DNA of 64,000 nt, taken from NCBI RefSeq assembly GCF_058153355.1, contig NZ_CM177019.1, one strand, 5' to 3'. A program made the position numbers. Shown here in pieces: positions 57,001 to 63,000 of this stretch; positions within the stretch are counted from its first letter, which is position 1; every line of letters starts with the position of its first letter.

Positions 57001-60000
57001 CACTGCCATTGCGCGCAGCCCACCAATCACCGCATACAGAATCCCCGCCAGACCGAGCAAAATCACCAGTAACCAGATAGCCGCACCGTGAGAAATTTGT
57101 AACGATTCCCCGACGTGAAACAGGCTGTTGAGCGCCAACGCGCCGGAGTAGAGAACAATCGGCAGAAAGCAGACACCGGTGGCAATGAGGAAGCAGAAGT
57201 CGATGATAATACGCGTCGTTTTATCATAACGTTCCTCCAGGAAATCGGGGATGGTGGCAATGCCACGCTTCAGATAGCGCGGTAAAAAGATTAGCGCGAG
57301 GAAGATCAGCGTCACCGCAGAAGTGACTTCCCAGCCCATCACCGACATGCCGCTTTTGTAGGCCTGCCCGGAAAGTCCAACCAGTTGTTCCGTGGAAAGG
57401 TTGGTTAACATTAACGAAGCGGCAATAACCGGCGCTTTTAGTGAACGTCCGGCAAGAAAATAGCCTTGTTGCGATCCGGTATCTGTTTTGCGGACCTTCC
57501 ACCAGGTGATGACCGCCACCAGCAGCGTAAAACCGACAAAACTCAAGATTTGTAACGAATTCATCTCATAGCCCTTATTTATGTTTATGTCCCGGACGCA
57601 TGAATATAGGGAGAGGTAAAATGCGTCGGGTCAGGCAGTCAGATTCTTAAAATACAAACGTCGTATCCCTGAACGGATTGTTTTCTGTTAAGTTCAGGTT
57701 GTGAGCATAATTCGCCGGAGGGATATTAAAATGAATGGAAAATTGCAAAGTTCGGATGTAAAAAACGAAACTCCGTACAATATTCCCTTATTGATTAACG
57801 AAAATGTGATCTCCAGCGGAATTTCTCTGATCTCGCTCTGGCATACCTACGCCGACGAGCATTATCGGGTGATCTGGCCGCGGGACAAGAAGAAACCGCT
57901 TATCGCCAACTCATGGGTTGCGGTGTATACCGTACAAGGATGTGGGAAAATTATTTTAAAGAATGGTGAACAAATAACACTGCATGGCAACTGTATTATA
58001 TTTTTAAAGCCAATGGATATTCACTCTTATCACTGTGAAGGTTTAGTCTGGGAACAGTACTGGATGGAATTTACCCCCACAAGTATGATGGATATTCCCG
58101 TCGGTCAGCAAAGCGTTATTTATAATGGCGAAGTTTATAATCAGGAACTCACCGAAGTTGCTGAATTAATTACTTCACCAGAAGCAATAAAAAATAATCT
58201 GGCAGTCGCTTTTCTGACGAAAATTATTTATCAGTGGATTTGTCTTATGTACTCAGACGGTAAAAAAGATCCACAACGGCGGCAAATTGAAAAACTAATT
58301 GCCACTTTACATGCCAGTCTGCAACAACGCTGGAGCGTAGCTGATATGGCTGCCACGATCCCCTGTAGCGAAGCCTGGTTGCGTCGTCTGTTTTTACGCT
58401 ATACCGGCAAGACGCCGAAAGAATATTACCTAGATGCACGTCTGGATCTGGCGCTATCGCTATTAAAGCAACAAGGGAACTCGGTTGGCGAAGTCGCTGA
58501 TACACTCAACTTCTTCGACTCCTTTCATTTCAGCAAAGCCTTTAAGCATAAATTTGGTTATGCGCCGTCAGCCGTGCTGAAGAATACGGACCAGCACCCA
58601 ACGGATGCCAGTCCACACAATTAACGTAACTCTGGCCAGTACGCTTTGTTGGCCTCCAGCAACTCATCCAGAATAGCTTTGGCGACCGAGGCGCTCGGTA
58701 CCTTTTTCGACAGGGTAATCGCCTGCCACAGGTGCTGATATGAACGCTGTTCCCAGGCGTCCACGACCAGTTTTTCCACCGCCACTTGCTGACTCATTAA
58801 CCCTTTCTGAAACTGCGGGATATCGCCGACCACCAGTGGTTCTGGTCCGTTGTGCCCGACCAGACACGGGATCTCGACCATCGCTTCATCATCAAAGTTA
58901 TGAATTGCCCCGTTGTTAGGCACAATCAGCAACATCCGCTCCTGAGTGTTGAAGGCAATTGCCGCCGCCAGATCGACGATGTATGACGCATGTTCGTCAA
59001 TTTCCAGCTTGCCCGCCGCTGAATTTCCTGCCGCCGTAATGGCGCGGCAAGCATCGAAAACCTGTTTCTCGCGATGTTCCATCACCTCATTCGCGCGGGT
59101 ATGTTCAGGGTTGGAATGCTGAACGACATAATCCGGGAAGAGATAATATTTCAGATAGGTGTTTGGTAATGTATCCGGATCCAGTGCCTGGACATCCCGC
59201 GCTTTTGCATAGGTGTCGTTCCAGCTCGCTTCAGTATGTGTATCTTGCTGCGGTGGAACATAACCGTGCTTAGAGACATATTGCCGCAGCTGGGGCATCA
59301 GGTCGTTGCCTTGCAAATCTTCAATTGATGTCCACCAGCCAAAGTGGTTCAGACCGTAGTAGCGCACGCGCATCTGTTTGCGATCTTGCAGCCCAACAAT
59401 TTGCGCCATCCGACTTTCAATACCGATTGGCATGTCACAGATGTTGAGGATTTTCGCGTTCGGGCGCAGACGACGTGTGGCTTCTGCCACAATTGCTGCC
59501 GGGTTGGAGTAGTTGAGCATCCAGGCATTTGGTGAATATTTTTCCATATAATCCACCAGTTCCAGGACGCCACCGATAGACCGCATGCCGTACGCTATTC
59601 CGCCGGGTCCGCAAGTTTCCTGACCGACAACGCCGTGGCGCAGCGGTATTTTTTCATCCAGTTCGCGCATCGGATATTTGCCGACACGAATGTGCGCCAT
59701 GACAAAATCAACGTCGCTGAACGCCACTTCAGGATCGGTGGTGTAGCTAAACGCAATGTCCGGCGCTTTCTCTTTAAGAATAACTTTACAGGCTTCGGCA
59801 ATCACTTCCTGCCGTGCGCCATCGTTATCATAAAATTTCAGTGCGCGAAGCGGGAAACGATCCTGATTCGCCAATAACATCAACACGATGCCTGGCGTAA
59901 AGGTGCTTCCACCGCCTGCGACAACCACTGAGAATTTGGTCATTATACTGCCTCCGTAATGGCAACTTTTTCTGCTAATTGATGAGAATTAATTAAGCTA

Positions 60001-63000
60001 TCGAGCTGTTCACGCAGCTGGGAAACATGCAAACCAATGATCACCTGAATGGCATCACCACTACGGAAGACGCCATGCGCTCCCAGCTTTTTAAAGACTT
60101 CGTCATCCAGCGTTTGTGACATGTCATGCAGTGCAATACGTAGACGCGTCGCGCAATTGTTGATGCTGGAGATATTGCCCACCCCGCCCAGGGCTTGCAG
60201 GATGCCGGTAGCCTGCTCCAGCTCTTTTTTGGGCTCTGCAGCGGTAGTTTGGCCTCGCGAGGCTTTGTATTCGGCTTTTGAGTAGAGCTTCACCTCCGCA
60301 TCTTCACGTCCCGGCGTGCACATGTTGAATTGCAGAATCAGGGTGCGGAAAACCACGAAGTACAGCAGGGTAAAGCACAACCCAATGGCGATTTGGGTCA
60401 GCATCATATCCGCGTGGTTGCTGAACATCGGGATCCAGTTTTGCGGTAAAACCTGGTCTATCAGACCACCGCCCATGTTGCCCACCACACCAAAGAGATA
60501 CATTACGGTCGACATTGAGGCCGCCAGCACGGCGTGTACCGCAAACAGCAACGGTGAAATGAACAGGAAGGTAAATTCCAGCGGTTCGGTAATTCCCACC
60601 AGCATGGCGGTTAAGGTTGCGGGGATCAGCAAGCCCGCCACTTTTACCCGATTTTCCGGTGCAGCAGTGAAGTACATCGCTAAAGAAATGCCCACGGCAC
60701 CAAAGATTTTTGAGTTACCGTGCAGGGCAAAACCGCCTTCCGGGAACAACGATTTCAGCGGCTCGGCGCTCAAACTGAACTCTTGCAGATGCTGCGCCCA
60801 GTACATCTGAATGCCGCCTTCAACAGCTGCCGGACCAAAGATAAACGGTCCGTAGATGAAGTGGTGTAAACCGGTTGGGATCAGAATACGTTCGAGGAAG
60901 GTGTAAACCCACACCCCAAGCGCACCCGCCGAACGCAGGAACGCTTGCAGAGATTCAATTCCCATTTGTACTTTTGGCCAGCCGAGCAATGTCAGCCACG
61001 CGCATGGGATCATCACCAGGAAGGCGATAATCACCACATAAGATGTCCCCTGAAAAATGCCGAGAAAAACCGGCAGTTTTTTATCGAACAGACGGTTATG
61101 CAGCGCCGTCACAATGCCAGAAATGATAATCGCGCCGATAATGCTGGTATCGAGGGTTTTAATTCCGGCCATCATGGTCAGCCCGCTACCAGCCACTGCG
61201 TCCTGAGAGAAATCGACGCCGAAGTAGCTTCCCCAGGTCATTCCCATCGCGTTGATGAAATAGTTCCAGGTCAGGAAACTCACCATCACCGCCAGACAAG
61301 CACGCCCCTGCGCTTGCTTAGCAAGGCCAATGGGTAAACCGACAGCAAAAATCAGCGGCATATTACGGAATACCGTCCAACCGCCCTCTTCAATGATGTG
61401 TACGATTTGCGCGAATAAACTGTTCGGATCGGTCAGTGATTCCCCGACAAACATCGGGTTTTGCAGCAAAATGGCAAGACCCACCACAATCCCGGCGAAG
61501 GGAAACAGCAGCACTGGCGTGAACATCGCGCCGCCAAAGCGTTGAATTTGACTGAGCATTTCCACATCCTCTTTTCTCAATTCTGTAAGTAGGAAGCCTG
61601 ATTGGTTATGCGGCAGGCCTGGAGCGAGGATAGGAAGATGCGATCGGCAGAACATGACGACCCAGTGGGATTCGTGATCGCTTTCATGCTTTTCGTTGGG
61701 CGGTAGAGATCTACGTTTTCGCAAAAAAGTAGACATCTGTGAGCACTGGTACACAGCATCGAACACATCTTTAAAAAAAAGATGTTTTTTCAATCGATTA
61801 AGCAGAACTTGTGGGCGCATTACCCGGGCTTACAGGCAAAAAAGAGATCTAGAGATGATCTACAAAAGCATTGCGGAGCGGTTAAGAATTCGACTTAATT
61901 CCGCAGATTTCACGCTAAACAGCCTTCTTCCCGGTGAAAAAAAGCTGGCGGAAGAGTTTGCGGTATCGCGGATGACCATCCGTAAAGCCATTGATCTGCT
62001 GGTAGCGTGGGGGCTGGTGGTCCGCCGCCACGGTAGCGGTACTTACCTGGTGCGCAAAGATGTATTGCATCAAACCGCCAGCCTGACCGGGCTGGTGGAG
62101 GTGTTAAAACACCAAGGAAAAACGGTCACCAGCCAGGTGCTGATTTTTGAAATCATGCCTGCGCCTCCGGCCATTGCCAGCCAGTTACGGATTCAAATCA
62201 ACGAGCAGATCTACTTCTCCCGTCGCGTTCGTTTTGTGGAAGGGAAACCGCTGATGCTGGAAGACAGCTATATGCCGGTAAAACTGTTCCGCAACCTATC
62301 GCTGCAACATCTGGAAGGGTCGAAGTTTGAATATATTGAACAAGAGTGCGGGATTCTTATTGGCGGTAATTATGAAAGCCTGACGCCGGTTCTCGCCGAT
62401 AGACTGCTGGCGCGGCAAATGAAGGTAGCGGAACACACACCACTGCTGCGGATCACCTCGTTGTCATATAGTGAGAGCGGTGAGTTTTTGAATTATTCAG
62501 TGATGTTCAGAAATGCCTGTGAATACCAAGTGGAGTACCATTTACGGCGACTCCACCCGGAAAAGAGTTAACCGATACTCCAAAAGAGCACCGCCAGTAA
62601 TTGTGGGGTGATAATGCGCAGGAACATCACCAACGGATAGACAGTGGCATAAGAGAGTGCCGCCGCACCGCTGGTTGGATGAAGATTATTAGCAAATGCC
62701 AGCGCCGGAGGATCGGTCATGGAGCCAGCCAGCATCCCGCACATGGTCAGGTAATTCATTTTGGCTAACATCCGCGCCAGAATGCCGACCGTAATCAGCG
62801 GAACGGCGGTGATGAGAGCACCATAACCAATCCAGCTTAGCCCTTCGCCATTGACCAGGGTATTGACAAAATCCCCACCGGATTTCAGACCTACTACCGA
62901 GAGGAACAACACGATCCCCAACTCCCGCAGCGCGAGGTTAGCACTTGGCGGCATAAACCAGTACAGCTTGCCGATACTGCCGATACGCCCGAGGATCAAC

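Follow-up and report, generated by a model that had tools for sequence, protein, structure and literature searches.

The glvG-glvBC genes of an Escherichia coli strain are intact and predicted to encode an ancestral alpha-glucoside phosphotransferase system

The 64,000-nucleotide stretch of Escherichia coli DNA analysed here (the window; contig NZ_CM177019.1 of assembly GCF_058153355.1) carries two adjoining genes on the minus strand, glvG (58621..59943) and glvBC (59943..61559), separated by a control region (61560..61854) from the divergently transcribed yidP gene on the plus strand (61855..62571). In the ORF listing of the window, glvG is a 440-aa frame with an ATG start and no internal stop or frameshift. 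The glvBC gene lies in a longer open frame (59943..61820, minus strand), in which an annotated-type start (MLSQIQRFGG...) at 61559 gives a protein of 538 aa. The uninterrupted 440-aa GH4 and EIICB frames that the first-pass annotation had placed between 58621 and 61559 coincide exactly with these ORFs. The start of glvG and the stop of glvBC share one nucleotide (TAATG), and both genes have an upstream ribosome-binding site (ACGGAGG for glvG and AGAGGA before the glvBC ATG at 61559). Alignments to solved homologues and to family profiles revealed no frameshift or hidden stop in either gene.

GlvG contains both domains of the GH4 family at full length, the N-terminal Rossmann domain that binds NAD+ (Glyco_hydro_4, PF02056, E-value 1.9e-66, residues 6-184) and the C-terminal domain (Glyco_hydro_4C, PF11975, 1.2e-55, residues 195-414), and the 12-residue N-terminal motif is visible in its translation. 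Residues 1-439 align without gaps to two solved structures, the AglB protein of Klebsiella pneumoniae (PDB 6dux; 392/439 identical residues, 89%, E-value 9.6e-275) and the GlvA protein of Bacillus subtilis (PDB 1u8x; 4.6e-224). The other solved relatives are more distant, namely a 6-phospho-alpha-glucosidase (6vc6, 1.6e-128) and a 6-phospho-beta-glucosidase (1s6y, 1.9e-61), so that the nearest structures are phospho-alpha-glucosidases and neither phospho-beta-glucosidases nor alpha-galactosidases; GlvG also scores below the cut-offs of the NCBIfam alpha-galactosidase and AglA models. In GlvA, Cys171 and Asp172 of the CDMP motif, His202 and Tyr265 reportedly have metal-binding and catalytic roles. 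With the offset of +2 given by the alignment, these residues correspond to the CDMP motif at 169-172, His200 and Tyr263 of GlvG, which is thus predicted to be an NAD+/Mn2+-type 6-phospho-alpha-glucosidase. Given that 89% of its residues match those of a protein with a solved structure, the orthology of GlvG with AglB and GlvA is unambiguous.

The product of glvBC, orthologous to AglA of K. pneumoniae, combines in one polypeptide a PTS_EIIC domain (3.2e-71, residues 10-346) with a GITE motif at 322 and a PTS_EIIB domain (2.2e-12, residues 453-482) with Cys469 in the sequence NCATRLR. A Pfam search detected no EIIA domain in this protein. It scores 957.5 bits against the alpha-glucoside-specific IIBC model TIGR02005 (cut-off 607.3), covering profile positions 1-524 of 524, and stays under every cut-off of the glucose, NAG and MalX models. 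For both genes, ORF lengths combined with such E-values lie far beyond chance expectation. In PGAP annotation the full-length EIICB is called 'PTS sugar transporter subunit IIB', a label that probably derives from the equivalog model NF007255, which corresponds to the C-terminal fragment of 161 aa produced by the split of the gene in K-12.

YidP is a GntR/HutC-type regulator with a GntR helix-turn-helix and a UTRA effector domain (Pfam), and is likely to be the local regulator of the glv operon. Between yidP and glvBC, positions 61762-61788 form an inverted repeat, AACACATCTTT/AAAGATGTTTT, which is a candidate operator. About 140 nt adjoining glvBC are almost invariant among seven strains and more conserved than synonymous sites, suggesting that this sequence is maintained as a control region. 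A simple scan of the control region found no sigma-70 consensus-like promoter, and an Rfam scan of positions 57000-64000 gave no match. A CRP-like half-site noticed by eye in the control region was dropped since its spacing is non-canonical.

The same locus, with the same flanking genes (yidL, yidP and yidE), is occupied in K-12 by glvC-glvB-glvG (b3683-b3681), with 96.7-97.8% nucleotide identity to the window. Alignment of the two regions shows that the frames are broken in K-12 and unbroken in the window, and the alternative that the K-12 genes are also intact is therefore rejected. The K-12 glvG gene lacks a segment of 508 bp that is present in the window (58843..59350); the boundary of this deletion is ambiguous within an 8-bp repeat, AGTGGTTC, found at 58835-58842 and 59343-59350, and the K-12 junction falls inside this microhomology. 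The deletion removes about 169 codons and shifts the frame. The first-pass annotation had described K-12 glvG as a frameshifted pseudogene, and PGAP flags it in MG1655 as 'frameshifted'; it is indeed a pseudogene, although the lesion is an internal deletion and not a simple frameshift. The PTS gene, flagged 'internal stop' by PGAP in the same genome, had rightly been described as split: codon 369 (60453..60455, minus strand) is CAG (Gln) in the window and TAG (amber) in K-12, and this single nonsense mutation divides the EIICB frame into glvC and glvB. Neither of the two lesions that define the degraded K-12-type locus, the 508-bp deletion and the codon-369 amber, is present in the window.

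The distribution of these states was determined across 5,426 complete genomes of E. coli. Among these, 1,652 (30%), with O157:H7 included, retain the segment that K-12 has lost, which led us to reject the idea that the intact state is rare. RefSeq lists glvG and glvBC as intact in O157:H7 TW14359, Z0117EC0005, 15.TR.026_OXA and PCP06021, and the intact glvG of such genomes is named 6-phospho-alpha-glucosidase. The 508-bp deletion is common to about 2,600 genomes, with an identical junction in every genome checked (K-12, EC-129 and strain 800). Non-K-12 strains with this deletion have CAG at codon 369 in the strains checked, and the exact 63-mer haplotype with the K-12 amber codon occurs in 348 of the 4,188 genomes that contain this stretch, so that a widespread amber codon was also rejected; the four genomes among the matches listed are all K-12 laboratory derivatives. 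Finally, about 1,150 genomes (B2-type) have lost glvG, glvBC and yidP together by one 3.9-kb deletion. In the B2-type strain L009, the DNA corresponding to 58592-62478 is absent and the last ~90 bp of yidP are kept. Because this 3' remnant of yidP is retained, the B2-type state corresponds to a deletion, and insertion of the module in the other strains was rejected as its explanation. Natural E. coli genomes therefore occur in four glv states: intact, glvG deleted, glvG deleted with the amber codon, and whole module deleted.

The yidP remnant of B2-type genomes, the single identical 508-bp junction and the near identity of the glvBC gene of PCP06021, a strain with an intact glvG, to that of K-12 (one synonymous site apart) indicate that intact glv is the ancestral allele. 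The intact state of the window, presented at first as a feature of this strain, is thus correctly described but ordinary and already known, being the ancestral allele, which about 30% of the complete genomes, O157:H7 among them, also carry.

The intact alleles of O157:H7 TW14359 (WP_000160122.1 and WP_000952127.1) and of other E. coli have the same architecture and lengths as those of the window and differ from them by three to five amino acids per protein. At synonymous sites, the window allele has diverged further than the others (dS 0.10-0.13), and no complete genome is nearer to its lineage than 98.5-98.9%. In comparisons with four other intact alleles, dN/dS is 0.03-0.05 for both genes, which indicates selection for function between intact alleles. 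Two substitutions at otherwise conserved sites are specific to the window, T414K in GlvG and S528L in EIICB.

The closest known system is encoded by aglA and aglB of K. pneumoniae (PDB 6dux and 6dvv), which show the same gene order, an EIICB gene followed by that of a 440-aa GH4 enzyme. AglA resembles GlvBC in lacking an EIIA domain and fitting TIGR02005; the two systems differ in species and chromosomal site, the E. coli genes being located between yidL and yidE. The K. pneumoniae proteins require the host EIIA-Glc and take sucrose isomers, isomaltose, maltitol and alpha-methylglucoside (PMC5309279; PMC12728616). The maltose PTS encoded by glvA-glvR-glvC (malA/malP) of B. subtilis is also related, since GlvA is a full-length homologue of GlvG with the same catalytic motif and GlvC, likewise an EIICB, functions with the Crr protein of E. 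coli (PMC5309279). However, its gene order and regulator family differ from those of the E. coli locus, and the identity of GlvA to GlvG is lower than that of AglB. The GlvR protein is of the RpiR type, whereas its counterpart here is the divergent GntR/UTRA protein.

We consider it likely that the locus is an intact ancestral glv operon, orthologous to the aglA-aglB alpha-glucoside system of K. pneumoniae and working through the following predicted pathway. GlvBC would take up an alpha-linked glucoside and phosphorylate its glucosyl moiety at O-6. Since GlvBC lacks an EIIA domain, EI, HPr and EIIA-Glc (Crr), whose gene crr lies outside the 64-kb window, would supply the phosphoryl group. GlvG, translationally coupled to glvBC, would then release glucose-6-phosphate and the aglycone from the phosphorylated glucoside in an NAD+/Mn2+-dependent reaction, and YidP would probably repress the operon until a sugar phosphate is present. 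We infer the dependence on Crr, the control by YidP and the expression of the operon; by analogy with AglA/AglB and GlvA/GlvC, the substrates may include sucrose isomers, isomaltose, maltitol and alpha-methylglucoside. When expressed in K-12, whose own homologues were described as cryptic or truncated, either of these two systems lets the cells grow on sugars such as isomaltose and the isomers of sucrose, and crr is required (PMC5309279). The suggestion that the strain has a functional alpha-glucoside PTS is thus supported at the level of sequence, by the catalytic motifs, the low dN/dS and the family-model scores. Searches of the literature on glvG, glvBC and yidP retrieved no experimental work on the intact operon of E. 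coli, nor on YidP.

The operon could also encode working proteins and yet be silent under normal conditions, requiring an activating mutation or a specific inducer, as for the bgl, asc and cel systems of E. coli. This is possible, though we regard it as unlikely. It would fit the scan of the control region, which lacks a consensus promoter, and the repeated and independent losses of the locus (3.9-kb deletion in B2, 508-bp deletion, K-12 amber), which suggest that it is dispensable in many niches. Standard identification tables give E. coli as negative for alpha-methyl-D-glucoside. Yet GlvA alone is enough for growth of K-12 on this sugar (PMC5309279). Moreover, none of the 56 E. coli isolates of a VITEK 2 study, one O157:H7 and 55 others, was palatinose-positive (PMC9631374), although intact glv is common. 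Since O157:H7 is intact yet palatinose-negative and about 30% of isolates are expected to be intact, the intact genes evidently do not confer a rapid palatinose phenotype; this indirect observation is compatible with an operon that is cryptic or under tight regulation. However, the VITEK test measures acidification from one substrate over a short time, and was performed on isolates of unrecorded glv genotype. Purifying selection (dN/dS 0.03-0.05 over dS of about 0.1) argues that the proteins are expressed somewhere, and conservation of the upstream 140 nt beyond that of synonymous sites likewise speaks against a silent operon. The combination of maintenance by selection (dN/dS of about 0.04, ~30% of strains) with negative palatinose and alpha-methylglucoside reactions in routine tests raises the rather doubtful proposal that the natural substrate or inducer differs from that of Klebsiella AglA/AglB, for instance a host- or diet-derived alpha-glucoside sensed via YidP.

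It is very improbable that the window carries an early-stage pseudogene, with intact frames and function impaired by GlvG T414K and EIICB S528L. Residue 414 is Thr in every other sequence compared (AglB, GlvA and four further E. coli alleles), and S528L is found in the window allele alone; but both positions are far from the CDMP motif, His and Tyr residues of GlvG and from the EIIB Cys and GITE motif of EIICB, a GlvG protein identical to that of the window is present on at least five independent contigs, and no non-synonymous excess is seen. Arbutin, put forward in the first-pass annotation as a growth test, is a beta-glucoside and not an expected substrate for an enzyme of the 6-phospho-alpha-glucosidase type; its name at this locus is a legacy annotation. 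A beta-glucoside (arbutin) PTS, as implied by the K-12 names 'arbutin-specific enzyme II', '6-phospho-beta-glucosidase' and, for glvC, 'Arbutin specific PTS permease' (PMC2617782), is scarcely credible, as these legacy names are opposed by the CDMP motif of GlvG, its E-values with 6-phospho-alpha-glucosidases (1e-275 and 5e-224) against 1e-61 with GH4 6-phospho-beta-glucosidases, and the EIICB scores of 957 bits for the alpha-glucoside model against 44 bits for beta-glucoside IIABC.

The comparison is a reminder that K-12 is a poor reference at glv, a point of small practical value that implies no new biology. If the natural substrate or inducer did differ from that of the Klebsiella system, the three independent inactivations (B2 deletion, 508-bp deletion and K-12 amber) would mark niche-specific loss. 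The four glv states are a possible lineage marker and could explain differences between strains in the use of isomaltose, sucrose isomers or maltitol, which is of relevance to industrial feedstocks and to sugars from the diet.

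The glvG gene of the window (58621-59943, minus strand) is an open reading frame of 440 codons with an ATG start, and its product contains both GH4 domains recognized by Pfam. It aligns without gaps over residues 1-439 with the 6-phospho-alpha-glucosidase of Klebsiella pneumoniae (6dux; E-value 9.6e-275, 392 of 439 residues identical) and with the solved enzyme of Bacillus subtilis (1u8x; E-value 4.6e-224). The CDMP motif (residues 169-172), His200 and Tyr263 occupy the positions of C171, D172, H202 and Y265 of the B. subtilis protein GlvA, residues with metal-binding and catalytic roles in the GlvA structure. 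The legacy labels 'arbutin' or '6-phospho-beta-glucosidase' attached to glv are contradicted by every comparison, with solved homologues as well as with family models.

The adjacent glvBC gene (59943-61559, minus strand) encodes an EIICB protein of 538 amino acids; its frame is open from 61820 and the protein starts as MLSQIQRFGG at 61559, after AGAGGA. Pfam detects the PTS_EIIC and PTS_EIIB domains, and the protein spans all 524 positions of the NCBI model TIGR02005, 'alpha-glucoside-specific PTS transporter subunit IIBC', with 957.5 bits (cut-off 607.3). A GITE motif is present at position 322 and the EIIB cysteine, C469, lies within NCATRLR. The glvBC stop and the glvG start share one base (TAATG) and glvG has its own ribosome-binding site (ACGGAGG), so that glvBC-glvG forms one translationally coupled unit. 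Alignment to the solved homologues and to TIGR02005 revealed no hidden frameshift in either gene; both are intact, as the first-pass annotation had proposed, and lie exactly at the coordinates that it gave. Two substitutions, T414K in GlvG (codon 414, 58702-58704) and S528L in the C-terminal tail of EIICB (codon 528, 59976-59978), are private to the window lineage and sit apart from known functional residues; a threonine is kept at GlvG 414 in AglB of K. pneumoniae, GlvA of B. subtilis and every other E. coli allele examined. Proteins identical to the window GlvG are encoded by at least five independent contigs.

In a megablast search of region 58400-62000 against 5,426 complete E. coli genomes, the K-12 MG1655 match was broken into two segments that together span 86% of the query, and RefSeq marks its glv genes as pseudogenes ('frameshifted' and 'internal stop'). 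Direct alignment showed two lesions in K-12. The K-12 glvG, described in the first-pass annotation as a frameshifted pseudogene, is indeed a pseudogene, but its lesion is a 508-bp internal deletion (window ~58843-59350) rather than a simple frameshift; the junction lies within an 8-bp direct repeat, AGTGGTTC, and the deletion costs about 169 codons, including the whole part after His200, and shifts the frame. The PTS gene is split in K-12, as also stated there, by a single change (CAG to TAG) at codon 369 (60453-60455), which produced the historical 'glvC' and 'glvB' genes.

The product name given by PGAP to the full-length 538-aa protein, 'PTS sugar transporter subunit IIB', is that of the equivalog NF007255; this model has 161 positions and aligns to residues 378-538, the C-terminal fragment that remains in K-12 after the amber codon. 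The pseudogene state of K-12 has thus probably spread as a misleading name through thousands of genomes.

Comparison of the window allele with four other intact alleles gives dN/dS of 0.03-0.05 for glvG and glvBC, with dS of 0.10-0.13 (Nei-Gojobori); both proteins have clearly been under purifying selection. Together with the catalytic motifs and the TIGR02005 score, these values lend sequence-level support to a functional alpha-glucoside PTS. By analogy with AglA/AglB and GlvA/GlvC, EIICB would take phosphate from EIIA-Glc (Crr), and GlvG would then release glucose-6-phosphate; those two systems allow K-12 to grow on isomaltose, sucrose isomers, maltitol, panose and alpha-methylglucoside, with crr being required (PMC5309279). 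In a VITEK 2 survey, the palatinose test was negative for every E. coli isolate, one O157:H7 and 55 others (PMC9631374), although the operon is intact in O157:H7 genomes and expected in about 30% of E. coli. The glv operon may thus be under tight control, have a substrate range narrower than or different from that of the Klebsiella system, or be cryptic like bgl, asc and cel, which we consider unlikely compared with a functional alpha-glucoside PTS.

The divergently encoded YidP, a GntR/UTRA protein according to Pfam, would be the obvious candidate regulator of this PTS operon, since it has been lost along with glvG and glvBC in B2 genomes. The intervening control region (61560-61854) contains an 11-bp inverted repeat (61762-61788), and a promoter scan found no consensus sigma-70 promoter in it. 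The ~140 nt directly upstream of glvBC (61560-61700) have three variable columns among seven strains and a single difference between the window and O157:H7, and are thus more conserved than synonymous sites, whose divergence is 10-13% in the adjacent genes. Such conservation points to a leader or control region under constraint, for which no Rfam match was obtained.

Two further loci were noted in the window. The tRNA-Sec gene selC (5567-5661) is followed by an island (10890-26640) encoding a SipB/IpaB-like translocator (10890-12671), a T3SS tip-complex protein (13849-15117), a ToxR/HilA-like regulator with TPR repeats (15505-17202) and, on the minus strand, an uninterrupted ORF of 3,128 amino acids with ~291-bp tandem repeats that matches the inverse autotransporter adhesin IatC (17254-26640). 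The island resembles the eip/eilA/air locus located beside selC in enteroaggregative E. coli. Z0117EC0005, the closest complete genome, carries a truncated iatC, and its T3SS-like genes are rearranged or absent. This genome also lacks a ~7-kb block at 33048-39252 (with no counterpart for 32822-39793) that encodes a LacI-type regulator, a PTS EIIC, a GH1 enzyme of the 6-phospho-beta-glucosidase type and a LamB-like porin; this block is a second accessory cluster for glycoside utilisation.

Over 7.3 kb, the window shows 100% identity with a draft contig (AAXEGZ010000034.1, GCA_015332025.1), and the nearest of the 5,426 complete genomes reaches only 98.5-98.9% identity (queries 40000-58000 and 58400-62000); about ten are at 98.4-98.7% and the next matches listed at 96.2%. 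The source thus belongs to a sparsely sampled, rather divergent E. coli lineage, which leaves the conclusion on the intact glv genes unchanged.

Of the 5,426 genomes, 1,652, many O157:H7 strains among them, retain the 461-bp core of the glvG segment that K-12 lacks, and the gene is annotated there as '6-phospho-alpha-glucosidase'. Since megablast matched at least 80% of the locus in 4,266 genomes, some 2,600 carry the 508-bp deletion; EC-129 and strain 800 share the K-12 junction and have an intact EIICB. Only 348 genomes have exactly the amber haplotype of K-12, and the four examples listed are all K-12 laboratory derivatives. In ~1,150 genomes, the megablast match is limited to the yidL end; in one of them, a B2-type genome, yidL is directly followed by yidE, window positions 58592-62478 are absent and the last ~90 bp of yidP are kept, indicating a 3.9-kb deletion of the entire glvG-glvBC-yidP module, in agreement with the reported absence of glvC in phylogroup B2 (PMC2617782). 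Beside this scar, the 3' part of yidE (62479-64000) is 91.3% identical to the window, against 96.6-97.4% across yidH-yidL of the same locus; the yidE segment is locally divergent or recombined. Another variant has intact glv genes and an IS200/IS605 element where yidJKL would be: in PCP06021 (locus positions 796-2437), a tnpA pseudogene and TnpB/InsQ replace yidJ-yidK and most of yidL, reduced to a 75-bp remnant adjoining glvG. The distribution of these states indicates that the intact state is ancestral and that at least three independent events have degraded the locus. Intact glv genes are thus not unusual in E. coli but ordinary and already known, the K-12 pseudogenes being recorded in the literature and RefSeq and intact orthologues being routinely annotated in ~1,650 complete genomes.
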